IMG/VR virus record: IMGVR_UViG_3300032282_004007
Span: 1-60,814 of that record
Reading direction: 5' to 3' (one strand)
Length of the DNA stretch: 60,814 nucleotides
From: a virus
Lineage: Duplodnaviria > Caudoviricetes
In this document: piece by piece, positions 12,701 through 44,430 of the stretch
Layout: every line of letters begins with the position of its first letter
Numbering within the stretch: position 1 is the first letter of the stretch
The notes under the pieces: model-generated
What the model was told of the DNA's origin: nothing
The model's input: the letters and a program-made list of their open reading frames with translations, nothing else
Databases searched by the model: none
Program-made: the position numbers and the translations under genes

Positions 12701-13722
12701 CAAACTGTTCGGTGTCTAGATCAATTGGACCAACATCATTTCAATCATTCGGCGAATTGTTAGGTTTAGCAATAAACTATAGAATGGATGTAAGCAACAA
12801 CACCTTTGACATAAAAGATTTTTTTGATAATACTGGATTTAAATTTACAAACAAAGTTTTTGATGGAGATATTACACAATTGATTTCAATAAATAATGAG
12901 GCAGGTATTCAAGAATTTGATTTACAAAGTCCAAAATATCTTGGTTACTCATACCAGGTATTAGACCCAGACATATATCCACAAGTATTCAAACCAAATG
13001 GATATTGGGGAGCGTTACCCGTTACATTTGAATTCGATGATGACGGTGAAAGAGTTAGAGCGTGTTTAAACGAACCAACACACCTAGCAAACGATGGAGT
13101 TACATATGTTCAAGGAAGATTAACTGAATCGTCACAAAAGGTTCCATTTTTCCTTTGGGATAAAAAAGGAACTGGTTTTGGTGGAATAAATGAAGCCACG
13201 TCAGATAATCAATCTTGGGATTACACAGATGTTCAGGTGCAACCATTACAAGGTATGACATATGCCTATAATTTAAACAATAGTTCAGACGATTCATCTG
13301 ATAGATATTTGTTATTACCTATAACATATGATTTTAGTGGATTAACAGTTAATACTGGTAATGCGACTAATGATGTTGAATTTGATGCTGTAATTGATGG
13401 TAACACATTCCCTGTTGGCTATCATGATTACGATAGTGAATATCCAGGATTTACTGTTTTAGCAGTAACAAGTGGTAGTACAGTTAACCCAATTAGTGGA
13501 ACGTTATATACAAGATATAGCCACGCTGGGACTTGGAATTCCCAATCATGGGACTACACGGATGATTTTATAATTAGAAAAACACAAGATTATTATAGCG
13601 GAACAAGACAAATTTTATCAACACCGTTCATGTTCTATTTTGGATTGAAAGCAGGTAAAACCGGGCTTGATAAATTTGTACAAATGTTTGGTCCAAAAGG
13701 AGCATTCCCATCAGCAGAATAA
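9745..13722 (+). CDS. Large baseplate-associated virion protein
   Basis: N-terminal GVVCGRV...GVPNARVSIFIP...KTNSSGDFMIWGVP (carboxypeptidase-regulatory-like); Cys-rich; within baseplate cluster. Confidence 0.65.
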   Translation: MNQKHRILTNIGKDKTVTVNLEQKFDLLEILSLKFTQYDVYTSLCADYGVVCGRVSVNNGFGVPNARVSIFIPLKQEDEADPVISALYPFKSTQDKTDSGYRYNLLPSRKQHGGHEPTGTFPDQKDILTREEYLEVYEKYYKYTVKTNSSGDFMIWGVPLGEQTIHVDVDLSDMGCFSLRPYDFIRNGFGVDSFKNTYSFKSSQDIDSLPQIVSFDKTIDVVPFWGNIDLCELGITRTDFDLSNQGVKVEPKAFLIGGTYTDTSKNSINKNCQPRRKMGRKCDLTTSTGTIEAIRFTTEKDVDSRPVLEEYDLNEDIPEDGGFVFSVPMNMDYVFTNEFGENEITNDSNKGIPTSACYRFRFNLGDEGKERTRKVASYIVPNIREYSTQIDQSYTFSTNWKEYPTLAVSSDSNRGILYNDFGQYYPRDYFYRLTYGKVYTVSSFQNSYFKGNTFSNDRYVGIKEIVPSEEEDCSDNVVTPPVNFGIKNFTFSLLIADVLLFFEHLINLVTLTLFNTLAIVFHDFADAVDFRPIRFLARSVRKFAYRLQAAGQRQLYLITYPECEECNGENTYGTSISDTSSKNYCVVGQGQIQGSVAGSTRVDFNSASIYPGTSNYSWAGATHNLGTLHPEVRVFIDNGLGGYTQLIDYNYTDPGTVPSNSFYKTGITTSSMDIVFTFVDPQVGYVEFSSDDSSDLLFNITNYTQQPCTGGTSTAIIDNADFVSRQSDYGLIISGSSTGVIELDGTNNSITTNGTSLFLNDSTNSFSENNLFTVFIVDLNSVPPSVDTLLESGCQLYDTPYDEDIVRYYYIGTGRTVSYIYQPDITSTNISDRNEILVKEYRGLNFTPITPSGESEFSNGIFYFIPATQTNARLYEYLKEYRRRKRVGKLFCGGIVNYSFIDNWLSGSLYFFQFKGKKGKYCEDVIRYVGSQDKYYYRSAIYSNENSWGVSKGIYGRTLGRPTTLVDLGPRDEFIKEICVDPTLDPNCSVSRSIGPTSFQSFGELLGLAINYRMDVSNNTFDIKDFFDNTGFKFTNKVFDGDITQLISINNEAGIQEFDLQSPKYLGYSYQVLDPDIYPQVFKPNGYWGALPVTFEFDDDGERVRACLNEPTHLANDGVTYVQGRLTESSQKVPFFLWDKKGTGFGGINEATSDNQSWDYTDVQVQPLQGMTYAYNLNNSSDDSSDRYLLLPITYDFSGLTVNTGNATNDVEFDAVIDGNTFPVGYHDYDSEYPGFTVLAVTSGSTVNPISGTLYTRYSHAGTWNSQSWDYTDDFIIRKTQDYYSGTRQILSTPFMFYFGLKAGKTGLDKFVQMFGPKGAFPSAE

Positions 13723-17376: not shown

Positions 17377-18282
17377 ATGGCAGTAGGTTCATACGGAATA
17401 ATTAGACCAGCAGACGTTTCACCAGAAGATGTTGAAATACTGTACCACTATGTGGAAAATAGGTCAACAGATTCCACCCCAATATTAAAAAAATTAACAT
17501 CAACAGACATTTTAACCCCGGTATTTCATAATAGTAATACTGGAGGTTTAAACGGTACTGAAATATTGGGAGGAATGTACAACTTAAAATTATTAGCCGA
17601 CGATTTTACAGATTTAGGTATATATACGTTACATATTCGCCCAAAACAGATCAGAGCAACAATTACTGACTGCGGAATATTAGCAGCACTACCTTCTGTT
17701 AGGGGGTTAGTGATCGACTTAAACGATATCGCATCTGACGATAGAAACAAATTTATACCACAAGGTCTTGTTGGGTATAGAATCGAATATATTGACGATA
17801 ATAACAGAAAAGTACCTAATTTCTATAGATTAGTCACATCTTCTTTTTATTGTGAACCAATAATATCTAACCTAACAAATTCTTCACAGAAGTCAATTAG
17901 ATATAGATATACCGACACAACAAGTAATTTGGTGTTTTTGACGTTAACTCCGTCATCTGCGCCTTCAAATAGACCAAATAGTATACCTTTTATCGGTAAA
18001 CCGACACAATCGATCATTTTAACAAATACTTTCTTTAACCCAACAACAGTTGAGATAGAAATGGTTGAACATGACGCATCGACACTTGCACATGCATTAT
18101 ATGGTAATCAAACCAAAGCGATTTCTAGTGGAATATACACTGTTTACGGTGACAATAATAACATTTACAAACAATTCAACCTTTACGAAGTTAAAGATGA
18201 ATTTAATGAGACATTATATGAGGTTCGTGAAGAAAGAACTAACATAGATGAGACCTTAAACTTTGATGATATCACAAAATAA
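17377..18282 (+). CDS. putative virion structural protein
   Basis: 301-aa ORF preceded by TATTTAT and TAATG-coupled to the giant gene. Confidence 0.6.
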   Translation: MAVGSYGIIRPADVSPEDVEILYHYVENRSTDSTPILKKLTSTDILTPVFHNSNTGGLNGTEILGGMYNLKLLADDFTDLGIYTLHIRPKQIRATITDCGILAALPSVRGLVIDLNDIASDDRNKFIPQGLVGYRIEYIDDNNRKVPNFYRLVTSSFYCEPIISNLTNSSQKSIRYRYTDTTSNLVFLTLTPSSAPSNRPNSIPFIGKPTQSIILTNTFFNPTTVEIEMVEHDASTLAHALYGNQTKAISSGIYTVYGDNNNIYKQFNLYEVKDEFNETLYEVREERTNIDETLNFDDITK

Positions 18283-21200
18283 TGGCAAAAAGGAAAGTAC
18301 CAAGTCAGGCGGCATCGGGAAAAGAAACATTTTCAGATAGTTTAATCGGGAGTCAAATTACCGATGGAACTAGTCAACTGACTAATAGTGTATTTGCTGT
18401 TGATAAAGTGATTCCTCAAAAAGACGCTAAATCATTTAAAACAGCCCCATTCTCAGATTTTTTAACTTTAGATGATTTAAAAATTGAAACAGATTCTCCA
18501 ACTACAGTAGCACAATCTACAGGAGAAAAAAGACCAATTAAGTTTAATGACTCTAAAAATGATGCTAGCAAATCTTTATTTGGTTCATTAAGAGAAAGAT
18601 TTGCGGTATCTACTGGTAGAATTATAAAAAATTTTCCAGCGGTTTTTATGGTTGACCCAACGTCACCAATCGCATCGTCAATTTATTCAGCAGAAAATAT
18701 TTCATATGATGTTTTAACCGATAGAACAACATTCACACTACAAACATCAATAATTTATAACCCATTGGATATTTCTTTTATTGCTCCAGTAGTGACAAAA
18801 GAAAATAATGAAGAAAACCCAATAAGAAAATTCTACTCTTCTTATAAAAAATATGTTTTAGATGTAAACGATGAAACGTATCCAATTGTATCTTATACTG
18901 AACCAGACACCAATAACCAAATAACATTAAAAGTTATTGGTAAAGCATTTACTGGCACCTCATATACAAATTCATATATTGTTAGACCTAGTAATGGAGT
19001 TGTTGAAGAGTTTTATATCGGTTTAGATGATTTAGAACAAACATTATTAAATAGAGAAACCTATCCAAAATATAAAGCAGGGTTTCAAGTCCCTAAAGAT
19101 ACTTTAGGTGGCGGTAAAACCGAACTTATAACAGAATATGCCACCTGGCCAATATCTAAAGACGGTTGGAACATTAAAATAGTCGGAGTTGATTTTGAAA
19201 CATATCTTGATACAGTTAATTCTTTAGCGATTGAGATTGATGATTATAAATCAAATTTAATTGTTAGATTTTTAACAGCACCACAACTTTTTGAATTTGA
19301 TACCGAAGACCAGAAGATGAATAAAATCTTCCAACTTTATGGTCAAAGTTTTGATAGGGTAAAAAAATATATAGACAACATTGCTTACATGCGTAATGTG
19401 AGTTATGACACTATTAACAACCTACCAGATGTTTTTTTAAAAAATTTAGCAAATACGTTAGGTTTAAATACTGTTAATTTATTTGATCAAAAAACATTAG
19501 AAGAGCAATTATATAATTTAGGTGGGCAAACATATCAAGGTGTACCCATAGGCAAAACATTAGTTGATGCTGAAATAGAATTTTATAGAAGAATTTTAGT
19601 TAACCTTGCGCACATCTATAAATCAAAAGGAACTAGAAGTAGTTTAGAATTTTTCTTAAAATTCATCGGTGCCCCCGATCCAATGATTAAGATTGATGAG
19701 TTTGTGTATAATGTTACGTCAAGCATACCAACAGGTAGAATCGAAAGCGACATTAACGAAGTTATACAAGGAGGTAAAGTCACCAAAATATTAGAATTCA
19801 ATCCAACAACATTTTCGTATGATATTAATGAAATTGTTGGTGGCAATGCTTTTAATGAGAGAACAGATTTTCCAGTTGATACTACAACAGGATTACCATC
19901 AGCACCAACAACAAACCAAGATAACATATTTTTCCAAATGGGTGCTGGCTGGTATGAGCAAACGTTAGATCATAGAGCACACGATATATTGAACACACAA
20001 AGTTCTATTACAACTGGAAGAACAAAAACTTTAATAACAAAATCAAAACCATTCACATATGGTGAAGATTACTATGATATATATAGAACCATCCCTGGGC
20101 TTGATTATGGTTATGATTTAAGAAACGCTATTGATAATGTTAAAGGGCAAGTTGTTGATGATTTAGACACAGCAAGATTAGTTTTAAACAGAAAAAATAT
20201 AAATGTATTTGTTTCAACCGCAAAAGCGATTGATTATGACATATGGAAAAAATCACAAAACTTAGATTTAACGTTTGGAACATTACCAGTACAAACTGGT
20301 GTAACATACGCTCAATTTACACAAGACCTATTAAGTCAACAAATAAAAAATTCTCATACAATAAAATATAAGAAAAATTACATTGTATTAGAAGAAATTT
20401 TTAGAGAATACTATTCACATCCAGGGTTTACATCATATGATTTTATTGATGTTTATAATTTTGTTGATGTAATGAGTCCTTATTGGACAAATATCTTAGA
20501 TCAGATAATTCCAGCAACAACATTATGGTTGGGTGGTAATTTGATTGAAAACAATATTTTAGGTAGACCAAAATATCCATACAGATTCCCATGTCAACCT
20601 ACTGAGTTTGTGGATAATTTATATCCTGACTTTGAAACAACAATTGAAGAAGATTTAGAAACTATTTTAGGTGGAGAAGAAAATCTAAGAGGTTTAATTA
20701 AATTTAGCGGCATAACTTATTCATTAGTTATTGATATTGATGGTGTTGAATATACGGGATCAACAACAGTTGATTTATTTGGTGAAACATTATTTGACAC
20801 ATTTACACCTGGTGCTACATGTACAGATTTAACAACATCATCAACCTATGTACCATTAATATGTGAATACAAAGATTGGATAAGTCCAGATATATCAGCA
20901 ATAAAAATCCAATGGAAAAACGCGTTAGCCAATTTAGTTGATGAAATTAACACAACCTACACTGGTTATACCGAAGGTTGTATACCAACTTATGAACCAT
21001 ATAACGAAATAACATCTGGGGCGACTTGTACCGGGTACACGCCAATAATTTCTTATGAAATTTTTACAGATGTGGATGGTATTGAAAAAATTAAATTTTA
21101 TTCATATAAAAATGGATATAATGAATGTACAATAAAAGATTATATAGATTTCTTTTTCTTGGCCGATTATATCTATACTCCACCAACATGTGAATTAGAA

Positions 21201-24200
21201 GTTTACGCAACAGCACCATGTGATGTTTTTGAATCAGGTACTGAAAATTGTAGATTAAAAAGTGACGTTTATCTTAATATAAGTGGCGCAACAGGAAATG
21301 AAGACGATATTTGGGGTGTAAACATTTTCTATAATTGTGATGAGAATTACAATGACGGAATTTCCCCAGTACAAATACAAAGATCCGTAATGGACCCATG
21401 TGTTTTTATTGTTAAAGATGTTTATGAAGATGGTGATATTAACGGTAATCCAATAGATTTAATTATTACTGATGCAGCAAACTGTGAACAAAAATTAAAA
21501 ATAGAAGGATTACAAATAAAGATAGAACACGATCCATATCCGTTATCAACATCTGGACGTAGTCACACACAATTATTTGAACTATCATCATTAGATGGTT
21601 ATGGTAACACAGTTTCAGTTATTTCTGGGGTTACATATTGTGACACATATACCGGTTATACAATCACACCTAAAATTCAATATAGACAAACTTTTAATTA
21701 CGGAATAAAAAAAGGAACGTTTGTATTGAAAGCAAGCGGAAGCACCATTAACATAGATACTTGGATAGATGTTCAAGACGCTATATCATCAGGTGTGATA
21801 ACTGAAACTTTAATCGAGAATATTGCTAATGGTGATTATTTGTTATCGGCAGAATTTTTAAATTGTCCATTCCCAACAAATGATTTTAGAAATATACCAA
21901 TAAGTGGTTACTCTTTTGGTTACAATTATAAATTAATACAAATTAATAATATTGATTGTTTAGGTTCAATTAAAAAACATATCATTAATAATGAATTTGA
22001 AGTTTTACCAACAACAGAATTAAGAATATATAGAGATGGTAAATTTATTAGTGAGTATCCAGAGAATTTAATTATTAAACCAGATACACCTATTGAACCA
22101 TGTTGTGATGTAGATGAATCATATTTTAATAATCACGGCGATTATCTTTTAGATCAAACCGGTTTCCCAATCGAAGTTGAAACAGTTGAATTAGATTATT
22201 GTTCTAGAAGTATTTTTTACCATTTAAATTTCATTGGTACTGGAGATGTTGTTTTATTTAACGGAAATAGCGATTCTCAAATATTAATGTCGTTTACACA
22301 AAATAAATTTAATAATCTTGATTTTGAATTAGAACAATTTTATGCAAATGGTTCATGTGTAAATGATTATAACCCAAGAGAGTATACTGGAGAAACTTGT
22401 AATAATACACCAGTTGTTAGTTGCGGCACGCACCATAGTAATGCTACACCAACACCTACACCAACAATTACACCAACGATCACACCTACATTTACGATTA
22501 CACCAACGCAATCTATTACACCAACGCAATCAGTTACACCAACCTTAACAATTACCCAATCAGTTACACCAACCTTAACAATTACCCAATCAGTTACACC
22601 AACTGAAACAGTAACACCAACTATAACATTAACTCCAACTTTAACTATTACTCAATCGATTACTCCAACACAGTCGATTACTCCAACATATACTATAACA
22701 CCAACTATAACACCAACACTAACAATAACACCAACCATAACATTAACTCCGACCCAAACTATTACACCAACATTGACTATAACACAGTCAATTACACCTA
22801 CTCAAACCATTACTCCGACTTATACTATCACACCAACTAAAACAATAACACCAACTGTAACAATTACTCAGTCGATAACACCAACTCAAACAATAACACC
22901 AACATATACTTTAACTCCAACATTAACTGAGACAGTTACGTTAACGCCAACTCAAACTATTACTCCGACTTATACATTAACGCCAACCTTAACTATAACA
23001 CAGTCAATAACACCAACGGAAACGTTAACACCTACGTATACTAGCACACCAACACTAACTGAAACAGTTACTTTAACACCAACACAAACCATCACACCAA
23101 CATATACGATTACTCCGACTGTAACAGAAACAATTACACTTACTCCGACTCAAACTATTACACCTACTGAGACAGTTACACCAACGTATACTATTACTCC
23201 AACTATCACACCTACATACACATTAACACCTACACTAACACAAACAGTTACACCAAGTTCAACTGAAACACCAACAGTCACACCTACGTTAACACCAACA
23301 TTGACTATAACACAGTCAATTACTCCAACTCAAACTATTACCCCAACTGAAACGCTTACGCCAACTATTACGTCTACATATACAATCACACCAACATATA
23401 CAATTACTCCGACCCAAACTATTACACCAACAGTAACAGAAACAATTACATTAACACCAACACAAACTATTACTCCAACTGAAACACTTACGCCAACAGT
23501 AACGATTACACAATCTATTACGCCTACATTTACGATTACACCAACGCAATCTATTACACCAACATTGACCATAACTCAATCAATAACACCTACGCAGACC
23601 ATAACACCAACGGAAACATTAACACCAACGGTTACTATAACTCAATCTATTACACCGACTCAAACTATAACACCAACTGAGACCCTTACGCCAACTATAA
23701 CAATTACTCAATCAGTAACACCTACTGAAACATTAACACCGACTATTACACCAACATACACTATCACACCAACATTGACTATAACACAGTCGATTACACC
23801 AACTGAGACACTTACGCCAACTTATACATTAACCCCAACACTTACACCAACACAAACTATAACTCCGACTCAAACTATAACTCCAACCTTAACAATTACT
23901 CAATCGATAACCCCAACTGAAACATTAACACCGACAGTAACAATTACTCAATCGATAACCCCAACTGAAACATTAACACCGACAGTAACAATTACTCAAT
24001 CGATAACCCCAACTCAAACTATCACACCAACTTATACGGTTACACCAACTATCACTCCAACGTTAACGATCACTCAATCGATAACACCAACTATTACGAT
24101 AACGCCGACTTATACTATAACACCAACATTAACAATCACCCCGACCGTTACGGAAACACTTACACCAACTGTAACAGAAACACTAACGCCAACATTGACT

Positions 24201-26912
24201 ATAACTCAGTCAATTACACCAACCTTTACTATCACACCAACTCAAACAATTACACCTACCTATACGTTAACACCAACAGTAACAGAAACAGTTACGTTAA
24301 CACCTACGCAGACCATAACACCAACGGAAACATTAACACCAACGTTAACGATAACTCAATCTATCACACCTACACAAACCATTACCCCAACTGAAACGTT
24401 AACTCCAACATTGACCATAACTCAGTCAATCACACCTACACAAACCATTACTCCAACTTATACGTTAACGCCAACAGTTACAGAAACTGTTACGTTAACA
24501 CCTACACAAACTATTACACCTACTTATACTATAACACCTACGTACACCATTACTCCAACTATTACCCCAACTGAAACTCTTACACCTACATTAACACAAA
24601 CAGTAACACCAAGTTCAACTGAAACCCCAACCCCAACACCAACCATTACACCAACTGTAACAATAACACAATCTATTACTCCAACTCAAACTATTACACC
24701 AACTGAAACACTTACACCTACTGTCACTATTACTCAATCAGTAACACCAACATATACTATTACACCAACCCAAACTATTACACCAACACTTACTGAAACT
24801 GTTACGTTAACACCTACTCAAACTATTACTCCAACTGAAACGTTAACACCAACATTAACGATAACACAATCTATTACACCAACATTTACCCTAACACCTA
24901 CGCAAACAATAACACCAACATTAACAATTACTCAATCTATTACACCAACCCAAACTATAACTCCAACTTATACTATAACACCAACAGTAACGCCTACAGA
25001 AACGTTAACACCAACATTAACGATTACTCAATCCATTACACCAACCCAAACTATAACTCCGACATATACTATAACTCCAACTTATACTATAACACCGACA
25101 ATCACACCAACCGAAACGCTAACACCAACATTAACGATAACACAATCTATTACACCAACCCAAACTATTACCCCAACTCAAACCATTACCCCAACATTAA
25201 CGATAACACAATCTATTACACCAACCCAAACTATTACCCCAACATATACTATAACCCCTACCATTACACCAACATATACCATTACACCAACATATACCAT
25301 TACACCAACTCAAACTATCACACCAACAGTTACTGAAACAATAACATTAACACCAACCCAAACTATTACACCAACTTATACGTTAACCCCAACCATAACA
25401 CCAACTCAAACAATTACACCAACACAAACAATTACTCCAACTCAAACAATTACACCAACATTTACACTAACACCTACATATACGTTAACACCAACCGTAA
25501 CACCAACTTGTGATTGTCCTGCTGGATTCACATTGACATCTGATGGAAATAGTTGTTATAGAGTTTTAACAACTAGCCCAACAAGTGTTGCAAGTTTATA
25601 TGTTGGTGACGGCGGTTTCAACTCATCATATGGTCAATATGGTGTTAAAATTTATAACGTAAATGATTATAACACATCTGGCGGATCTGTAAGTGGAAAT
25701 TTAGCATTTTCAGGATTTACTAATGCTTATGACTCGTCTAGCACAACATCTGTTGAGGCATATTGGGCTAGCGTTATGAACGATAATAATGTTTGGGTTT
25801 CAGGAAACACATACTGGCCTGGTCCAGCATCTCCAAATTATCCAAATTATATTAGTTTATGTGCAACATTTACTTTATCAACAACTAAGACATATTATAT
25901 TGGTGTTGCGGGAGACAACGATATTACAATTAAATTAAATTCTGTTACATTAGTTAACCAACCAGACAACCAACCAGTAGATAACTTCAGATTCTATCAC
26001 ATATATCCTGTAGTTTTACAAGCAGGACCAAATATTATTGAAATAGAAAACTGGAACAGAAGTAGTGTTGGTTCGTTCGTTGCTGAAATTTATGATAACA
26101 CATTATCACAACTTACATCAGCAACAAATAGTGCAATGGTAACTAAAGTATTCAGCACAGGTGATTATTTACCTGGAGGACCGCATGCTGGTGAACAATA
26201 CTGTAGTAACTATAGTTGTCCAGCAACATATAGTTTAGATTTCTCAAACCCAAGTATTCCAGTTTGTAAAAAAATTGAATATGTTGATTGCGGAGTTACA
26301 CCTACACCTACACCAACAGTTACTATAACACAATCTATCACACCTACGTTTACGTTAACTCCAACTCAAACAATCACACCAACCATAACATTAACACCTA
26401 CGTATACATTAACGCCAACTCAAACCATTACTCCAACACAAACAATTACGCCAACATATACTATTACTCCAACTCAAACAATCACACCAACCATAACATT
26501 AACACCTACGTATACGGTTACATCTTTCTATCAAAACTGTGGTTATGGTTGTCAAGCGTATGAAACAGACCAATCTTGTACGCCTTGTGATCCTGCTGGA
26601 ACACAAATCGATATTACTGGTTGCGCTGAATTCACAGGAGGAAATAGCGTAACAATGACCTTATTTAGTTCAGTGAACCTCTCAACAAATGTGACCGTAA
26701 ATTTTGTTATTGACGGTGATTTGGGTACACATATTGAAAGCAGTTTAGTAATATATAGCGGTACATCATATGCTTCTAATAATGTTGGCTTACACTACAA
26801 TTACGAAATAATTGGTAATGCTTACATCACCTCAGTAAGCCCAGCGTCTTATGGTAGTGAATCATATGTTCCTGGTACAGTAGCATATGGCTCAGGATGT
26901 ACTCCACCATAA
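18282..26912 (+). CDS. Giant baseplate wedge-like protein with Thr/Pro array, EGF-like Cys motifs and PA14-like domain
   Basis: LKNLANTLG...IYKSKGTRSSLEFFL (P2 gpI / T4 gp7-like); aa ~1389-2409 TxTPTx repeats; C-terminal YYIGVAGDND...YHIYPVVLQAG. Confidence 0.75.
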   Translation: MAKRKVPSQAASGKETFSDSLIGSQITDGTSQLTNSVFAVDKVIPQKDAKSFKTAPFSDFLTLDDLKIETDSPTTVAQSTGEKRPIKFNDSKNDASKSLFGSLRERFAVSTGRIIKNFPAVFMVDPTSPIASSIYSAENISYDVLTDRTTFTLQTSIIYNPLDISFIAPVVTKENNEENPIRKFYSSYKKYVLDVNDETYPIVSYTEPDTNNQITLKVIGKAFTGTSYTNSYIVRPSNGVVEEFYIGLDDLEQTLLNRETYPKYKAGFQVPKDTLGGGKTELITEYATWPISKDGWNIKIVGVDFETYLDTVNSLAIEIDDYKSNLIVRFLTAPQLFEFDTEDQKMNKIFQLYGQSFDRVKKYIDNIAYMRNVSYDTINNLPDVFLKNLANTLGLNTVNLFDQKTLEEQLYNLGGQTYQGVPIGKTLVDAEIEFYRRILVNLAHIYKSKGTRSSLEFFLKFIGAPDPMIKIDEFVYNVTSSIPTGRIESDINEVIQGGKVTKILEFNPTTFSYDINEIVGGNAFNERTDFPVDTTTGLPSAPTTNQDNIFFQMGAGWYEQTLDHRAHDILNTQSSITTGRTKTLITKSKPFTYGEDYYDIYRTIPGLDYGYDLRNAIDNVKGQVVDDLDTARLVLNRKNINVFVSTAKAIDYDIWKKSQNLDLTFGTLPVQTGVTYAQFTQDLLSQQIKNSHTIKYKKNYIVLEEIFREYYSHPGFTSYDFIDVYNFVDVMSPYWTNILDQIIPATTLWLGGNLIENNILGRPKYPYRFPCQPTEFVDNLYPDFETTIEEDLETILGGEENLRGLIKFSGITYSLVIDIDGVEYTGSTTVDLFGETLFDTFTPGATCTDLTTSSTYVPLICEYKDWISPDISAIKIQWKNALANLVDEINTTYTGYTEGCIPTYEPYNEITSGATCTGYTPIISYEIFTDVDGIEKIKFYSYKNGYNECTIKDYIDFFFLADYIYTPPTCELEVYATAPCDVFESGTENCRLKSDVYLNISGATGNEDDIWGVNIFYNCDENYNDGISPVQIQRSVMDPCVFIVKDVYEDGDINGNPIDLIITDAANCEQKLKIEGLQIKIEHDPYPLSTSGRSHTQLFELSSLDGYGNTVSVISGVTYCDTYTGYTITPKIQYRQTFNYGIKKGTFVLKASGSTINIDTWIDVQDAISSGVITETLIENIANGDYLLSAEFLNCPFPTNDFRNIPISGYSFGYNYKLIQINNIDCLGSIKKHIINNEFEVLPTTELRIYRDGKFISEYPENLIIKPDTPIEPCCDVDESYFNNHGDYLLDQTGFPIEVETVELDYCSRSIFYHLNFIGTGDVVLFNGNSDSQILMSFTQNKFNNLDFELEQFYANGSCVNDYNPREYTGETCNNTPVVSCGTHHSNATPTPTPTITPTITPTFTITPTQSITPTQSVTPTLTITQSVTPTLTITQSVTPTETVTPTITLTPTLTITQSITPTQSITPTYTITPTITPTLTITPTITLTPTQTITPTLTITQSITPTQTITPTYTITPTKTITPTVTITQSITPTQTITPTYTLTPTLTETVTLTPTQTITPTYTLTPTLTITQSITPTETLTPTYTSTPTLTETVTLTPTQTITPTYTITPTVTETITLTPTQTITPTETVTPTYTITPTITPTYTLTPTLTQTVTPSSTETPTVTPTLTPTLTITQSITPTQTITPTETLTPTITSTYTITPTYTITPTQTITPTVTETITLTPTQTITPTETLTPTVTITQSITPTFTITPTQSITPTLTITQSITPTQTITPTETLTPTVTITQSITPTQTITPTETLTPTITITQSVTPTETLTPTITPTYTITPTLTITQSITPTETLTPTYTLTPTLTPTQTITPTQTITPTLTITQSITPTETLTPTVTITQSITPTETLTPTVTITQSITPTQTITPTYTVTPTITPTLTITQSITPTITITPTYTITPTLTITPTVTETLTPTVTETLTPTLTITQSITPTFTITPTQTITPTYTLTPTVTETVTLTPTQTITPTETLTPTLTITQSITPTQTITPTETLTPTLTITQSITPTQTITPTYTLTPTVTETVTLTPTQTITPTYTITPTYTITPTITPTETLTPTLTQTVTPSSTETPTPTPTITPTVTITQSITPTQTITPTETLTPTVTITQSVTPTYTITPTQTITPTLTETVTLTPTQTITPTETLTPTLTITQSITPTFTLTPTQTITPTLTITQSITPTQTITPTYTITPTVTPTETLTPTLTITQSITPTQTITPTYTITPTYTITPTITPTETLTPTLTITQSITPTQTITPTQTITPTLTITQSITPTQTITPTYTITPTITPTYTITPTYTITPTQTITPTVTETITLTPTQTITPTYTLTPTITPTQTITPTQTITPTQTITPTFTLTPTYTLTPTVTPTCDCPAGFTLTSDGNSCYRVLTTSPTSVASLYVGDGGFNSSYGQYGVKIYNVNDYNTSGGSVSGNLAFSGFTNAYDSSSTTSVEAYWASVMNDNNVWVSGNTYWPGPASPNYPNYISLCATFTLSTTKTYYIGVAGDNDITIKLNSVTLVNQPDNQPVDNFRFYHIYPVVLQAGPNIIEIENWNRSSVGSFVAEIYDNTLSQLTSATNSAMVTKVFSTGDYLPGGPHAGEQYCSNYSCPATYSLDFSNPSIPVCKKIEYVDCGVTPTPTPTVTITQSITPTFTLTPTQTITPTITLTPTYTLTPTQTITPTQTITPTYTITPTQTITPTITLTPTYTVTSFYQNCGYGCQAYETDQSCTPCDPAGTQIDITGCAEFTGGNSVTMTLFSSVNLSTNVTVNFVIDGDLGTHIESSLVIYSGTSYASNNVGLHYNYEIIGNAYITSVSPASYGSESYVPGTVAYGSGCTPP
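22446..25508 (+). repeat. ~3.06-kb coding array of degenerate T-x-T-P-T-x repeats
   Basis: Continuous ACN-CCN-ACN repeats, AC-rich and G-poor; a second short copy at ~26298-26522. Confidence 0.97.
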
Positions 26913-36239: not shown

Positions 36240-37187
36240 ATGAGTTTAACTAAAGAAGAGTTCCACACAAAAAAAGAGCAATGGTTAGAAAATGTGAAAA
36301 CCAAAAAGGGAATCATTGCACAATTAGATGCAGATGGAATGTGTTCAGCATATATTTTGAATAAGATCACTGGGTTACCCGTCGTTGGGATAACCGATTT
36401 GTATAATACCATCTATGGTATTGGTAAAGGTGATAATGTAAGTGACTATGTGTTTGTTGATGTTGAGATTTTTGATGAAAGCGTTTACTCTATTGGTAAT
36501 CACAATAATGTAACTAATGATGAGGTATTAACTGAGTTGTTAGAGAATAGATTATCTAATTGTTTAAATCCAAATTATCAATTCGGTGTTACAGTTACAG
36601 ATTATCGTCAAAAATATCCTTACAGTACTTCATTATACTTAATGGAGTTATTTGGTGACATATTTGATATGAACGAAATGCTTTCAAATGAAAAAATTAA
36701 AACTTGTTTAATATTCTCTGACGGCATCTATAACAACGTATGGAAATATAGAGCAAATTCAGAAGATTGGCAAAAGAAACTTTTTACTAATCCAATCATC
36801 AACGAACAAATGTTAAATCCTCTTTTTGAAATAAAAGATAGATCAGCATACGAAAGAACAATTTTAGACGACATTAAAAGAAATTTCAATAACTTTGATA
36901 CTAAGAGCAAATGTGATAAGAATGTGGAAACAATCGATGCGTTCACTAAAAGGAAATTGGAAAATATGTCAGCACCATTTACGGACAGTGGATTTACTAC
37001 CGAAGTTAATTTTGATAAAAAAATCACCTTAGATAGTAAAATATATAGTCCAAAATTTTATAACCCCATTCCAAGGGAGTATCATTGTGACCCAATTCTA
37101 ATTTATGAAAACACGTTTACCATAAATTACATTTATCAAGACAGCATTTCGTTAACAAATATACCAACAGAAGACAGATATGTATAA
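36240..37187 (+). CDS. DHH-superfamily phosphoesterase-like protein
   Basis: DADG, FVDVE, SIGNH, NPN, KYPYST, D motifs. Confidence 0.55.
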   Translation: MSLTKEEFHTKKEQWLENVKTKKGIIAQLDADGMCSAYILNKITGLPVVGITDLYNTIYGIGKGDNVSDYVFVDVEIFDESVYSIGNHNNVTNDEVLTELLENRLSNCLNPNYQFGVTVTDYRQKYPYSTSLYLMELFGDIFDMNEMLSNEKIKTCLIFSDGIYNNVWKYRANSEDWQKKLFTNPIINEQMLNPLFEIKDRSAYERTILDDIKRNFNNFDTKSKCDKNVETIDAFTKRKLENMSAPFTDSGFTTEVNFDKKITLDSKIYSPKFYNPIPREYHCDPILIYENTFTINYIYQDSISLTNIPTEDRYV

Positions 37188-39519
37188 TAACCCGTTTATT
37201 AAAGTTGAGTGGGAAGATGTTCCAGAGAACTTAACACAAGAACGTATAAAAAGAGTAAAAACTTATTTCCAAACTAAGTACAACTCAACCAATGTTAAGA
37301 TTGTCACAAAAGTGATTAGTAATTTGGCTAACACAAAATTAAAATCACTAGAGGCAAGTGATAATATTTTAGATCCACAGTATCAGAAGAATCTTGTTAA
37401 AGATTTCATGAGTGAAAATAGTATTAATATAAAATGGGACTTAATTAATCGATTAGATGATAAAGTAAATTCAGAAATCGATAAGTTAAACCAAAATAAA
37501 GTTAGATACAACAAATGGTTTATAAAGAAAGTTGAGTTTTCTAATTTTCTTTCTTATGGCGAGAATAATGTAATTGAATTTACTGATTTAGATGGTATTA
37601 CTGTTATTGAATCCACACCTAGGAATTTCGGCGGTAAGTCAACTGCAACTGTTGATCTATTAATGTTTTTATTTTTCAATTCAACAACAAAAACTAAAAC
37701 GAATATTGAGATATTCAATAAGTTTTCTGATGCTGATGAGGTTAAAGTTAAAGGTGAGGTTATTATTGATGGTGACACCTATATCATATCAAGAAATGTA
37801 ACTAGAAAGAAAAGTAAATCCGGTGAATATACAGTCAAAAACGATTTAGAGTTCTTTAAAAAAGCGGAAGACGGAAGCATTACTAATTTATCTGGAGAAC
37901 AAAGGAAAGAGACGGAAACATTAATTACCTCTGCTATAGGTACCCAAGAAGATTTTCTCTCAACAATTCTTACAACTGGTTACAACCTAGAGGAATTAAT
38001 TGAAAGTAAACCAACAGCAAGAGGACAAATCATCACAAAATTTTTAGGTTTAGAATCACTTAAAAATAAAGAAGATATTGTTAAAGAAATGTATAGTGAA
38101 TGGAGTAAGAAATTAATTTCAAACACAAATAACATTGCTGATCTCGATAACCAAAATAATACAGCATTAGAATCTATTGAAAATTCAAAAGAACAAGTTG
38201 AGACATTAACTACCGCTCTGAATGATTTTGAAGAAAAAGTAAAAAGGTTAAACGAAAGAAAAGAACATATTTTAACGTTAAAAAATAATGATGTTGATAG
38301 AGAACTAATCAATACAAACCCAACTTTACTTGAAAGAGAAATAAATGAAATTATTTCCCAAAGAAATGCCAGTCAAAAAAATGCAGATGGCGTTAACGCA
38401 ATAGAACCATCACAATATTATCACGAAGATCAACACAAAGAGTTAAAAGGTGAGATGGCTAATCTCCAAGGTGGTAATGTTGCACTTAATCATGAAAAAA
38501 CATCTAAACAGAAGTTAATTAAACAATTAACCGAAGGGGCTGTTTGCCCAACTTGTCACAGATCACTAGACGATGTTGACCATAGTGAAGAAATTGAAAA
38601 AATAAAAAAAGAAATTGAAAATATTGGAAAAGATATTGAAACAAACGGGTTAGCGTTTGATTCATTAAAGACGCAATCCGATCTTTTGGAATCTTTAAAA
38701 ACTGAATTTGATAATTACGAAAGAAATAAACTTCGTAAAGCAAGATACGAGTTGGAAGTTGAACAAAAGCAACATGAGATTAATACAAAACAGTCCAGAT
38801 TAGACAATTACGAAAGAAACAAAAGTAAATTAGAAGAAAATAAAAAAATTGATGGTGAGTTAATTACATTAAGAACACAAATAGAAACCGCCGGTGCCGA
38901 TATTTCTGTAACCAATAATAATATTAATAAACACAATAATAATATTACTAATATGGAAGAAAAGATCGATATAAATAATAAGTTGATCGAGAAGATAAAA
39001 GCAGAGGAAGAATACCAGCAAGTGTTTAAAACATATTTAACAATTTTTGGTAAGAATGGTATCTCTAAAATTATATTAAAGAACATGATCCCATTACTTA
39101 ATCAAGAATTACATCGTTTATTATCTGATAGTTGTTATTTCACGCTTGAGTTAAACATTAACGACAAGAATGAAGTTGAGTTTATTATGATTGATAATGA
39201 AACAAGAGTAATTAAACCCCTTAACGCCGGATCAGGTTATGAAAGAACAATATCTTCATTGGCGTTGAGAAGTGTATTAACAAAAGTATCGTCTTTACCT
39301 AAACCAAACATTGTGGTAATGGATGAAGTGTTTGGAAAAATCGCAGATGAAAATCTGGAGATGGTAGGTGAATTTTTCAAGAAAATCAAAAATTATTTTG
39401 AACATATCTTAGTAATTTCACACAATCCGTTAATTCGTAACTGGTCAGACAACATTATCATGGTTAAAAAGGATGATAACATATCCAGTATTGAATATGT
39501 AACGACCAAAATTTCTTAA
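37180..39519 (+). CDS. Rad50/SbcC-like (gp46) SMC ATPase
   Basis: FSNFLSYG, NFGGKS, coiled coil with CPTC zinc hook, SGYE signature, MDEVFG, ISH. Confidence 0.92.
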   Translation: MYNNPFIKVEWEDVPENLTQERIKRVKTYFQTKYNSTNVKIVTKVISNLANTKLKSLEASDNILDPQYQKNLVKDFMSENSINIKWDLINRLDDKVNSEIDKLNQNKVRYNKWFIKKVEFSNFLSYGENNVIEFTDLDGITVIESTPRNFGGKSTATVDLLMFLFFNSTTKTKTNIEIFNKFSDADEVKVKGEVIIDGDTYIISRNVTRKKSKSGEYTVKNDLEFFKKAEDGSITNLSGEQRKETETLITSAIGTQEDFLSTILTTGYNLEELIESKPTARGQIITKFLGLESLKNKEDIVKEMYSEWSKKLISNTNNIADLDNQNNTALESIENSKEQVETLTTALNDFEEKVKRLNERKEHILTLKNNDVDRELINTNPTLLEREINEIISQRNASQKNADGVNAIEPSQYYHEDQHKELKGEMANLQGGNVALNHEKTSKQKLIKQLTEGAVCPTCHRSLDDVDHSEEIEKIKKEIENIGKDIETNGLAFDSLKTQSDLLESLKTEFDNYERNKLRKARYELEVEQKQHEINTKQSRLDNYERNKSKLEENKKIDGELITLRTQIETAGADISVTNNNINKHNNNITNMEEKIDINNKLIEKIKAEEEYQQVFKTYLTIFGKNGISKIILKNMIPLLNQELHRLLSDSCYFTLELNINDKNEVEFIMIDNETRVIKPLNAGSGYERTISSLALRSVLTKVSSLPKPNIVVMDEVFGKIADENLEMVGEFFKKIKNYFEHILVISHNPLIRNWSDNIIMVKKDDNISSIEYVTTKIS

Positions 39520-40279: not shown

Positions 40280-40306
40280 GGGAGGTGCTTACACTTCCCT
40301 TTTTTT
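40280..40306 (+). terminator. Rho-independent terminator
   Basis: GGGAGGTG-ctta-CACTTCCC plus T7. Confidence 0.8.
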
Positions 40307-40327
40307 ATTTTTATATTATATTTAATA

Positions 40328-40402
40328 TTAGACCTTGTGGTTGAATCGGAAGTGTCCTTGTGGCATTTGAGTTGGAATTGATACCAACAAATTCGGGTTC
40401 AA
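40328..40402 (+). ncRNA. structured 5' leader (three-way junction) with an arm complementary to 41228-41242
   Basis: TTGAATCGGAA/TTCGGGTTCAA outer stem, AGTGTC/GGCATT and GTTGG/CCAAC inner hairpins. Confidence 0.55.
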
Positions 40403-40423
40403 ATACAAAAAAATATAAGGAAA

Positions 40424-41218
40424 ATGAAACAAACTATTTGGGTGACATCCTTGTCACGACCACAATCTTTTATTACCAAGAGTAAACAAAGATTAAAACA
40501 GTACATTGATACTGTCTATTTAAAAAACGGAGACGAGTTCGAAATTGAACTTTTCAATCCCACGCAAAATAAAATTTTAGCAAAAATCGAGATGAATGGT
40601 AATACCATTGGTAATGGTATTATACTTCGTCCAGGTGAACGTGTATTCCTTGAAAGGTATCTCGATGAAGCAAAGAAGTTTTTGTTCGAAACATACGTTG
40701 TAAATGATAATAATGAGGAAGTACAACAAGCGATTGCAAATAATGGTGATGTTGTTATTAAATTTTATGACGAAATAAAATTACCATCATATTATAGCAG
40801 TGGTTCCAGCACAATAACAATTAGCAATCCGGCTTGGATAAATACAGGTACACCATATTATGGTAATACTTTTACCACAACATCTACCGGTACAAACACG
40901 TTTTATAACACTTCGTTAACCAGCGGAACATTTAGTGCCTCAAATACGTTCTTAAATAATCCGGACAAAGTTAAAAAATCAACAAGACAATTTGAAACGG
41001 GTAGAGTGGAAAAAGGTTCAGAGTCCAACCAATCATTTGTGGAAGGTAATGCTAGATTTAATTCCTACCCAATTGAAACAAATTGGTGGAAAATCAAACC
41101 TCAATCAGAAAAGTTATATGTAACTAAGGATGATTTGATGATTTATTGTACCGAGTGCGGCTCAAAACGCAAAAAAGATACACATAAGTTCTGTCCACAA
41201 TGCGGAACAAAGTTCTAA
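40424..41218 (+). CDS. hypothetical protein with C-terminal zinc ribbon
   Basis: Beta-rich N-terminal domain, S/T-rich linker, CTECG...FCPQCG. Confidence 0.8.
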   Translation: MKQTIWVTSLSRPQSFITKSKQRLKQYIDTVYLKNGDEFEIELFNPTQNKILAKIEMNGNTIGNGIILRPGERVFLERYLDEAKKFLFETYVVNDNNEEVQQAIANNGDVVIKFYDEIKLPSYYSSGSSTITISNPAWINTGTPYYGNTFTTTSTGTNTFYNTSLTSGTFSASNTFLNNPDKVKKSTRQFETGRVEKGSESNQSFVEGNARFNSYPIETNWWKIKPQSEKLYVTKDDLMIYCTECGSKRKKDTHKFCPQCGTKF

Positions 41219-41240
41219 TAATAAACTAATCACAAGGTCT

Positions 41241-41267
41241 AAGCGGGGTACTTTTTGTACCCCGTTT
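41241..41267 (+). terminator. terminator-like hairpin
   Basis: AAGCGGGGTAC-ttttt-GTACCCCGTTT. Confidence 0.75.
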
Positions 41268-41289
41268 GTATTTATATTAAAATACGCAT

Positions 41290-43148: not shown

Positions 43149-43586
43149 ATGGGGACATTTATATTATTTGTTTTTGGGGATTTTGAAGACCATGGTGATA
43201 TTGAGTTTTTCTGCTTAGAACATTTTTCGGAAATATCTGAAAAGGGTGTTAAGTATGTTATTGAAAATGATGGTAACTGTATTATTATTTTTGAGACCGA
43301 AAAAACAAAACAAGAACTACACGATAAATTAAGCGTTTTATTAGCAATTGAGCAAATAAAGTTTTACTTTCTTTTTGAACGGTCATCTATAGTTTCTACC
43401 TACCTACCCGAAACCCTAAAGGACTTCGTTTTTAAACCAATGAGCGAGGAAAATATCAAGTTATTAATGGAAAGCAAACCCAAACCCAGTATGGACTTGG
43501 ACGATATTTTAGATAAAATTGACCAACAGGGTGTTAACAGTTTAACAGACGACGAAAAAAAATTTTTAGACGATTTTGGTAAATAA
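43149..43586 (+). CDS. protein with C-terminal DUF6576-like motif
   Basis: LDDILDKIDQQGVNSLTDDEKKFL. Confidence 0.65.
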   Translation: MGTFILFVFGDFEDHGDIEFFCLEHFSEISEKGVKYVIENDGNCIIIFETEKTKQELHDKLSVLLAIEQIKFYFLFERSSIVSTYLPETLKDFVFKPMSEENIKLLMESKPKPSMDLDDILDKIDQQGVNSLTDDEKKFLDDFGK

Positions 43587-43623: not shown

Positions 43624-44430
43624 ATGAAGAAAACCGCACCAGTTCAAAAAACTGACGAATTAAATTACTACATAAAGGATTTGAAAAAAATCCCAGTGAT
43701 TGACCCCAAAAGAGAGTATGAGGTTTTTGTACTTCTTAAGGATAAAAAACTAAGTAAAGAAGTCCGACAGAAGTTAACGGATGAAATGGTTGTAGGTAAT
43801 TTACGTTTTGTTATATCTGTTGCGAAAATGTATCAAAATCAAGGATTAGATCTTTTGGATCTAATATCTGAAGGAAACATTGGTTTAATAAAAGCAATTG
43901 AAAGATTTGATATTACATCTGGTTTTAAATTTATCTCGTATGCTGTTTGGTGGGTTAAACAATCTATTATGGCTGCGTTAAATGAATATGCTAGAACAAT
44001 ACGCATACCGTCTAATGTTTTACAAGATGCACAAAAGCAAAAGAAGATAGATGAAAATGATGACAATTATTTAATTGAGTACAACGACACATCTTTGATT
44101 GGCATCCCATCAACTGTAGATTTATTTAAAGAAATTAATGAAGATGGCGATACTTTAATTGAAGTAATTAATAACCCTAACGCTGAAGATCCTATGTCAG
44201 CATTAAATAATTTAGACGAGGTTAAAAAACGAATGAAATACATGTTATCCATATTGGATGACAGAGAAAAAACAATAATTGAAGGTTATTTTGGTTTATG
44301 TGGCTCCGAACGCAATTTAGATGACCTAGGAGAAGAATTTGGTTGCACTAAAGAAAGAATTAGACAACTAAAAGACAAGGCCCTAAAGAAACTAAGGAAC
44401 GAGAGTTTTGGGCTATTAAACTATTTATAA
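43624..44430 (+). CDS. RNA polymerase sigma70-family factor (RpoD-like, no region 1.1)
   Basis: NLRFVISVAKMY, DLISEGNIGLIKAIERFD, GFKFISYAVWWVKQSI, region 4 TKERIRQLKDKALKKLR. Confidence 0.93.
   Translation: MKKTAPVQKTDELNYYIKDLKKIPVIDPKREYEVFVLLKDKKLSKEVRQKLTDEMVVGNLRFVISVAKMYQNQGLDLLDLISEGNIGLIKAIERFDITSGFKFISYAVWWVKQSIMAALNEYARTIRIPSNVLQDAQKQKKIDENDDNYLIEYNDTSLIGIPSTVDLFKEINEDGDTLIEVINNPNAEDPMSALNNLDEVKKRMKYMLSILDDREKTIIEGYFGLCGSERNLDDLGEEFGCTKERIRQLKDKALKKLRNESFGLLNYL

Follow-up and report, generated by a model that had tools for sequence, protein, structure and literature searches.

This locus raises the question of whether the two ends of a phage messenger RNA (mRNA) are held together by base pairing and, if so, what such a closure could accomplish. 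The stretch of DNA analysed, hereafter called the window, is 60,814 nucleotides (nt) long and comprises the whole of the IMG/VR virus record IMGVR_UViG_3300032282_004007, which is estimated to be 18% complete and has a G+C content of 32%. On its plus strand, an open reading frame (ORF) for a 264 amino acid protein (40424-41218) is bracketed by two 15-mers, a 5′ arm with the sequence TTAGACCTTGTGGTT (40328-40342) and a 3′ arm with the sequence AATCACAAGGTCTAA (41228-41242) that begins 9 nt past the stop codon. A preliminary description of the locus proposed that these arms form 14 Watson-Crick pairs and one G-U pair and thereby close the ends of the mRNA into a stem. Both arms are indeed present exactly at these coordinates, with 885 nt between them and with G40340-T41230 as the G-U pair, and the adjacent G40343-T41227 is a possible 16th pair, again G-U, that would lengthen the helix. 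Comparison with homologous loci causes us to conclude that an end-to-end RNA helix very probably forms and is selected for.

This conclusion could not have been reached from the window, where the arm pair taken by itself is at chance level, and this must be counted against it. There are 12 inverted pairs in the window that match at 14 or more of 15 positions with a spacing of 50-1500 nt, and 20 dinucleotide shuffles of the window yield 12.4 ± 3.6 such pairs. Exact inverted 12-mers number 28. Thus, the finding stands or falls on the comparison with homologous loci, and although chance fits the window alone, it is ruled out as an explanation by the comparative data. Also ruled out is a motif repeated across the window, because a window search that allowed fewer than two mismatches found no copies besides the two arms themselves.

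Homologues were collected in three sets: 44 viral loci (38-76% identity, on viral contigs of up to 334 kb), 80 metagenome loci from freshwater and other samples with identity down to 36%, and another 27 viral loci that were retrieved when a distant family member served as the query. Use of the L237 protein as the query found no viral relatives. A protein search gave 3568 relatives at E ≤ 0.001, and all of these are unnamed or labelled 'hypothetical'. Nearly every locus of the first set carries ACCTTGTGGTT some 92-96 nt upstream of the ATG and AATCACAAGGT just past the stop codon. For all three sets together, a helix was counted if it was a contiguous run of at least 9 base pairs (bp), Watson-Crick or G-U, wherein the 5′ arm starts between -112 and -84 and the 3′ arm starts no more than 20 nt from the stop codon. 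Such a helix is present in 99 of the 116 distinct loci that include both flanks. These helices range from 9 to 17 bp (median 12, most commonly 11-15 bp) and represent 45 unique arm pairs. When the 3′ zones are shuffled, the mean run is 7.7 and a length of 9 bp is attained in 25% of trials.

The most compelling evidence comes from the differences among the arms. There are at least 13 arm sequence classes, and each is complementary to its own 3′ arm. Examples of the 5′ arms are ACCTTGTGGTT, GAAACCTTGTTGAT, TAGAGCCTGAC, GCCTTTTACCG, GTTAACTCC, TGATGATTAACT, ATAGAGCCCTTCTA and AAGTGGTGCCA. The arms of distant loci are unrelated in sequence yet remain complementary, as in the pairs TAGAGCCTGAC/GTCAGGCTCTA, GCCTTTTCCCGTT/AACGGGAAAAGGT, TGCCTTTTACCG/TGGTAAAAGGCA, GTTAACTCC/GGAGTTAAC, TGATGATTAACT/AGTTAATCATCA, ATAGAGCCCTTCTA/TAGAAGGGCTCTAT and AAGTGGTGCCA/TGGCACCACTT, which in our view settles the question of whether the pairing is real. 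When the 5′ arms of 13 classes were matched with the 3′ arms of the same 13, own pairs averaged 12.5 bp and pairs with other classes 8.0 bp. An alignment of whole mRNAs (35 distinct sequences) shows 11 core pairs that are paired in 34-35 of the 35 sequences, and one lineage has exchanged G-C for U-A, G-U for G-C and U-A for A-U, all together. Among the 53 unique arm pairs of the main class, 43 have G-C at position 12, seven have U-A and two have G-U; at position 13, 35 have G-U, seven A-U and two G-C. The covariation of flanking arms that the preliminary description had recommended looking for is therefore present, given that complementary flanks are kept and distant arm sequences compensate. 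A predicted end helix built of Watson-Crick and G-U pairs is thus shown by comparison to be under selection.

Several features of these data nevertheless weigh against the helix. The core is almost invariant in the viral set, so most of the covariation traces back to relatively few deep lineages, which are not independent of one another. If G-U pairs are allowed, helices are longer than if A-C pairs are allowed in 54 of the 73 unique arm sets, and the reverse is seen in six, but this excess mostly reflects one inherited G-U pair, and the always-paired columns 5-12 contain only five G-U or U-G pairs versus one A-C. The preliminary description had taken the wobble in the window as a sign of RNA pairing rather than of a DNA repeat. 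The RNA reading stands, although the G-U pair itself carries little of it and the other points given below weigh more. Finally, 17 of the 116 loci fall outside the fixed criteria. Five of these have a helix when their sequences are read individually: in L171 and L188 it is masked by A/T runs, in L220 it lies at -129 and hence beyond the fixed window for the 5′ arm, in L238 the ATG was mis-set, and in L251 it consists of 7 and 9 bp around a 1x1 loop (-19.4 kcal/mol). The other 12 loci, namely L221, L230, L241, L254, L268, L270 and a clade of six, have no convincing long-range helix. L221 (from position 2298 onward) retains the 5′ arm and leader, but its next gene begins only 8 nt past the stop codon, with no visible 3′ arm, which may reflect a recent loss of this arm or a partner located elsewhere.

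The clade of six loci (L246, L250, L252, L253, L255 and L257, with leaders located at about positions 470-576) lacks both a convincing 3′ arm and the AAGG element of the start region. Its 5′ segment can form a local hairpin, CUAGA-GGUU-UCUAG, or can pair with the start region AAUCUUUAUG. As judged from these sequences, the long-range helix has been lost in this clade and a local 5′ hairpin is made from the same 5′ segment instead.

The arms appear to be located at both extremities of the predicted RNA, as indicated by a promoter-like box or a tRNA gene that precedes the 5′ arm and a terminator that follows the 3′ arm. In the main class (79 unique upstream sequences), TAtattTata is the consensus of a box found at -15 to -6 from the first C of CCTTGT, and an A is present at -3 in 84%. 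The box ends 3-5 nt upstream of the 5′ arm and presumably resembles the Bacteroidota -7 promoter element TAnnTTTG. In the window this box is TATATTTA (40317-40324), from which a transcript start near 40330, the third base of the 5′ arm, is predicted. The window also encodes a sigma-70 family factor 2.4 kb downstream (43624-44430; regions 2 and 4, Pfam E = 1e-15 and 2e-13), which might be the protein that reads the TAtattTata box. In the AAGTGGTGCC clade, a gene for tRNA-Ser ends 2-3 nt before the 5′ arm in five of the six loci scanned, such that the mRNA 5′ end there would be generated by tRNA 3′ processing. These tRNA-Ser genes have the anticodon UGA (L260, positions 405-503; also L261, L263, L266 and L272), and L267 has the same arm with a promoter-like A/T box and no tRNA. 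The two arrangements suggest that the mRNA's 5′ end can arise either from transcription initiation or from tRNA 3′ processing. Elsewhere, in L026, three tRNA genes (Met, Glu and Tyr; 330-685) are situated about 700 nt upstream of the cassette.

On the other side, a hairpin followed by a run of T nucleotides lies past the 3′ arm in 97 of the 99 loci, mostly 0-10 nt away, and in 71 of the 99 the 3′ arm starts 6-8 nt past the stop codon. The window has such a terminator-like hairpin at 41240-41268, immediately past the 3′ arm; together with its T-rich tail, the intrinsic-terminator-like element GCGGGGTAC-TTTTT-GTACCCCGT spans 41243-41275. A similar hairpin and T run (40280-40299) is present downstream of the Clp-protease gene (Pfam E = 2e-54) that precedes the unit, and the arms are thus located between the clpP terminator and the gene's own terminator as previously described. 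In both the minimum-free-energy and the centroid fold of the 948-nt RNA from 40328 to 41275, the end helix is present and the terminator hairpin comes directly after it, with z = -4.2 relative to 20 shuffles. These folds, together with the 99 loci and the unlike arms that still pair, favour the original proposal of a stem that joins the mRNA ends.

Conservation is higher in the 95 nt that separate the 5′ arm from the ATG than in the protein, and these 95 nt include a second predicted structure. RNAalifold, applied to 29 distinct leaders, yields a three-way junction (40343-40400) wherein the P1 stem (40343-40351 with 40392-40400) begins at the base after the 5′ arm and encloses the hairpins P2 (40352-40356 with 40362-40366) and P3 (40371-40375 with 40384-40388). 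The joining strands carry the conserved sequences UUGA and RAA. In an alignment of 78 distinct leaders, 98.7% of the cells are paired, compared with 34-47% when partners are slid out of register, and 16 of the 18 leader pairs exhibit compensatory changes on both sides. This alignment was fitted to a covariance model and is therefore biased towards the structure, and independent MAFFT alignments give 97-100% paired cells for P1, P2 and P3. RNAalifold also placed a small self-hairpin within the 5′ arm, which was set aside because it has no compensatory change. The window leader contains a second copy of CCTTGTGG (40357-40364) in the loop of P2, and when this leader is folded as a single sequence it is this copy, rather than the 5′ arm, that pairs with the UAUAAGG element described below. 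It was rejected as an alternative partner because the P2 loop varies between loci and the second copy is therefore not conserved.

The covariance model finds exactly one copy of the leader in the window. A degenerate DNA pattern for the P3 region selected 120 loci, mostly by chance matches, and of the 119 that were searched with the model (L144 was left out) 45 have the leader. In 44 of these an ORF homologue follows, and the 45th runs off its contig after eight codons. The leader is also present in 70 of the 80 metagenome loci, including distant ones, and seven of the ten misses have no upstream sequence. Among these sequences, it is thus found only in front of this gene family. Searches of Rfam 15 gave no match to 40328-40423 at E values up to 10, nothing at the gathering score in the window, and only neighbouring tRNAs for eight diverse leaders at E values up to 0.1. 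The leader is a new structured RNA in the sense that no family in Rfam 15 corresponds to it; the claim extends no further than this, as no literature search was directed at the motif.

An A-rich linker (40401-40423) separates the leader from the ATG and includes the element UAUAAGG (40414-40420), which resembles a Shine-Dalgarno (SD) sequence. The segment CCUUGUG of the 5′ arm is complementary to this element, which causes us to consider the start region as a possible third partner in the pairing scheme. Similar complementarity is seen between UGCCUUUU and the start region GAAAGGUA in L236, between AUGGUUAACU and AGUUAAUUAU in L237, and, in the clade represented by L253, between UAGAGGUU and that clade's own, different start region AAUCUUUA. 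Among 14 arm classes, pairing of the 5′ arm with its own region from -20 to +5 has a mean energy of -6.05 kcal/mol, compared with -4.22 kcal/mol for the regions of other classes (one-sided Wilcoxon p = 0.0012), and the own region is the best partner in five of the 14. Combined over shuffles, the start-region pairing has p = 1.6e-6. The 3′ arm (CACAAGGUC), rather than being complementary to the start region (UAUAAGGAA), is of like sense to it and pairs with the 5′ arm.

The presence of an SD-like element is itself unusual for this genome, where only six of the 49 window ORFs have an SD-like tetramer before their start. One homologue is labelled as coming from a Bacteroidota metagenome-assembled genome (MAG), and Bacteroidota hardly use SD pairing. 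The scarcity of SD-like elements in the window and the Bacteroidota MAG homologue together suggest a host that hardly uses SD pairing. The only other strong and well-placed SD-like element in the window is TTAAGGAGAAAT, in front of an ORF for 145 amino acids (43149-43586).

The evidence for the start region and for the outline of the transcript has its own weaknesses. The 5′ arm would bind the start region weakly (-2.3 to -8.7 kcal/mol), and in L258, L235 and L247 no better than in cross-class pairing. The arm strings were our own choice, and the classes share ancestry. RNAalifold gave no pairing between arm and start region for the 29 leaders. In addition, the promoter assignment is a matter of consensus resemblance, and the start, end and structure of the transcript are inferred rather than observed. 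The RNA-library data come from one run, represent a 0.04 share of words and consist of contigs only. They include a single contig of 167 nt that covers 40390-40554, as well as part of the leader of a relative. Such libraries may carry DNA, these contigs cannot reveal transcript starts, ends or strand, and a lack of coverage does not count as evidence.

With these reservations, the explanation that we prefer, with slightly less than even confidence, is that the end-to-end helix both stabilizes the mRNA and licenses its start site. The gene would constitute a transcription unit complete in itself, within the genome of a freshwater jumbo phage, and its mRNA would begin with the 5′ arm and end with the 3′ arm and the terminator hairpin. 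Once transcription is complete, the arms would pair into a helix of 11-16 bp that runs on into P1 at one end and meets the terminator hairpin at the other, such that both RNA ends are buried in a single stack. Perhaps the paired 5′ end then shields the mRNA from nucleases that need a free 5′ end. Before the 3′ arm has been made, the 5′ arm might instead bind weakly to its own start region at UAUAAGG, and the much stronger 3′ arm would subsequently displace this pairing. Translation would therefore be open only on complete transcripts and would close again if the 3′ end were lost. As for the three-helix leader, it probably holds these pairings in position or serves to bind a factor.

The most serious alternative, which we consider possible but less probable, is that the helix is a stability element only, which keeps ribonucleases away from the 5′ end (and helps to do so at the 3′ end), and that the complementarity to the start region is incidental. 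Certainly the 5′ arm is at the predicted extreme 5′ end in every context, whether it is preceded by a promoter box or a tRNA, and the clade that has exchanged the long-range helix for a local 5′-terminal hairpin is readily understood in this way, as are the weakness of the start-region pairing and its absence from some classes. There is also a precedent in the hbs mRNA, wherein a 14-bp interaction between the untranslated regions (UTRs) modulates cleavage by RNase Y, according to PMC5737220. However, the preference of the arms for their own start regions is significant among the 14 classes (p = 0.0012 as given above), an SD-like element precedes this gene in a genome that hardly uses such elements, and a local hairpin would be a far simpler means of 5′ protection, yet about 104 of the 116 loci keep the long-range form. 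Another explanation holds that the helix and P1, stacked to give some 20-25 bp, constitute a processing stem for RNase III or another double-strand nuclease, as was also proposed in the preliminary description. The 5′ strand does run unbroken from the arm into P1, although we judge this proposal very unlikely. RNase III usually needs roughly two helical turns, and the end helix alone falls below this need (11-16 bp in most cases, 9-17 bp overall), with the longer stem available only if the two helices stack and with a whole ORF interrupting the stack on one strand. Moreover, no nuclease gene or cleavage product has been seen, and in one clade function survives with a local hairpin of 5-6 bp. 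A natural example of such processing is icaR, whose 5′/3′-UTR pairing creates an RNase III substrate as described in PMC7821165.

A role as a binding platform is compatible with the licensing of the start site, and would mean that the three-way junction and end helix bind a factor, such as the encoded zinc-ribbon protein, a ribosomal protein or a metabolite, and that the arms serve mainly to build this site. Among loci whose proteins are only about 50% identical, the joining strands and P3 hardly vary in sequence, which is beyond what helix maintenance needs. The restriction of the leader to this gene family and the basic zinc ribbon at the protein terminus, KRKKDTHKFCPxCG, also speak for a platform. 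As a principal function we nevertheless consider it quite unlikely, given that no known riboswitch or leader family matches, that RNA binding by the protein has no supporting evidence, and that the fold search gave no functional match. Least probable of all, and in our opinion extremely unlikely, is a feature that acts in DNA, be it inverted repeats for a recombinase that inverts or excises the cassette, transposon ends, or paired operator sites. It is true that two copies of a single protein site would also covary, that the unit is found among differing neighbours, with only five of the 41 listed viral loci sharing the flanking genes of the window, and that similarity between loci ends near the outer edges of the arms. 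However, in every locus examined the gene is oriented alike with respect to the promoter-like box and terminator, and none is inverted. The preliminary description had raised inversion or excision at the arms, but contigs from three DNA runs contain no strand-changing joints (although contigs can miss rare forms), there is no visible target-site duplication, and no recombinase or transposase is adjacent. The one difference between the arms is itself conserved as a sense-strand G-U that becomes A-U or G-C in other lineages, and the RNA structure next to the arms covaries strongly.

To our knowledge, pairing between the untranslated ends of bacterial mRNAs is known in only a handful of cases. 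The nearest is the hbs mRNA of Bacillus subtilis and its 14-bp 5′/3′-UTR interaction (Braun, Durand & Condon 2017, PMC5737220). The likeness extends to a long-range pairing of about 14 bp, a monocistronic mRNA and a structured leader, and in hbs the pairing is tied to nuclease access and translation initiation according to that source, as is proposed for the phage pairing. The unit described here likewise has complementary segments in its 5′ UTR (promoter-like box to ATG) and its 3′ UTR (stop codon to terminator). Functional 3′ UTRs such as that of hbs are usually not conserved among close relatives, according to the review PMC7821165, whereas the phage pairing is kept in about 100 loci whose proteins are down to some 36-40% identical, with many compensatory arms. 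In addition, the phage arms are predicted to be at the very ends of the RNA and the phage host probably lacks SD pairing. In icaR of S. aureus, the 3′-UTR sequence UCCCC acts as an anti-RBS that base-pairs to the ribosome-binding site (RBS), represses translation and creates the RNase III site (Ruiz de los Mozos 2013, as described in PMC7821165). The two cases are similar in that base pairing puts the 3′ UTR in communication with its own mRNA's start region. However, the icaR 3′ UTR, as portrayed there, represses the RBS, whereas the phage 3′ arm resembles the start region and binds an upstream anti-start segment, and the predicted sign is therefore opposite, namely activation.

Type I toxin mRNAs such as hok and aapA1/aapA3 of H. 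pylori are also similar, because in these RNAs transient local hairpins give way to a stable 5′-3′ interaction at the end of transcription (PMC6733600), much as the ends of the full-length phage transcript would pair after co-transcriptional local structures are replaced by a more stable end helix. As characterized in PMC6733600, however, they encode small toxic peptides, have an antisense RNA, and cannot be translated until their 3′ end is trimmed, whereas the phage product is 264 amino acids long, no antisense partner came to light, and its start region would, by prediction, be freed by the end helix. A sequestered mRNA of the toxin type, as suggested in the preliminary description, is thus rejected both on account of the size of the protein, well above the roughly 60 amino acids that bound such peptides, and on account of the location of the start region, which lies outside the end helix and is complementary to the 5′ arm. 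A promoter scan identified no minus-strand promoter in the leader, and conserved antisense promoters were not sought systematically. The flanks of rRNA and phage T7 RNAs that pair into stems for RNase III resemble the phage arms in that they flank a long RNA, but those stems exceed 20 bp and are cleaved, compared with 11-16 bp here. Two other early suggestions found no favour. A retron is excluded by the lack of an adjacent reverse transcriptase and by the roughly 900 nt between the arms, where 885 nt of protein-coding sequence takes the place of a short msr-msd, and nothing points to a circular RNA.

The protein offers few clues. It comprises a conserved N-terminal beta-sandwich of about 115 amino acids, a variable linker rich in S, T, N and G, a conserved ETGRxEKGSxSxQ block and a putative C-terminal zinc ribbon, YCxECGxKRKKDTHKFCPxCGTKF, whose CxxC...CxxC pattern agrees with the earlier naming of this gene as a zinc-ribbon gene, although the Pfam zinc-ribbon matches are weak and below the cut-offs. 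Homologues are 247-349 amino acids long, and some relatives have a SHOCT domain in place of the zinc ribbon. A PHROGs search with the protein found nothing. Structure prediction, which had also been recommended, was carried out with AlphaFold and gave a model of low confidence (pLDDT 58) that provides no functional lead: Foldseek found nothing in the PDB at E ≤ 0.001, BFVD returned, at high root-mean-square deviation, a SHOCT-domain protein from a phage together with uncharacterised large-DNA-virus proteins, and the ESM Atlas returned viral hypothetical clusters and a DUF7918-like lead. None of these resources, from Pfam to the ESM Atlas, names a function for the protein.

The neighbours of the unit are the Clp protease, an SbcC-like protein (37180-39519) and small ORFs without assigned function, and the absence of an adjacent reverse transcriptase, transposase or recombinase was thus correctly described at the outset. 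In those five of the 41 listed viral loci that share them, the common neighbours are ClpP upstream and a 114 amino acid ORF downstream, and similarity fades just outside the arms. The differing neighbours and the end of similarity at the arms indicate that the unit behaves as an autonomous cassette. Either these genomes are much rearranged or the cassette moves, and nothing else points to transposition. Other genes in the window encode a class II ribonucleotide reductase (5283-7193) and a baseplate-J-like protein (7855-9687), and the ORFs at 9745-13722 (1325 amino acids) and 18282-26912 (2876 amino acids) have no significant Pfam family.

This case is a known principle, the pairing of 5′ and 3′ UTRs, in a new form and with a new leader RNA family. 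About 100 sampled loci share the same architecture while their arms have repeatedly been replaced by compensation, which is unusually clean evidence that end-to-end closure of an mRNA can be a selected and long-lived design. Since the genes of this phage are otherwise without SD elements, the unit may offer insight into translational control in such hosts. It packs a promoter, leader, ORF, 3′ arm and terminator of its own into about 950 nt, and is therefore also directly testable with reporters. A more far-reaching proposal, which we regard as unlikely, is that the mRNA of this prokaryotic virus forms a closed loop, wherein the helix and leader bring the stop codon (6-8 nt from the helix in 71 of the 99 loci) close to the start region in SD-independent hosts, such that initiation is licensed only on complete transcripts and terminating ribosomes are handed back to the start. 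If this were true, the unit would be a base-paired counterpart of eukaryotic mRNA circularisation that has long been kept in a large family of jumbo phages.

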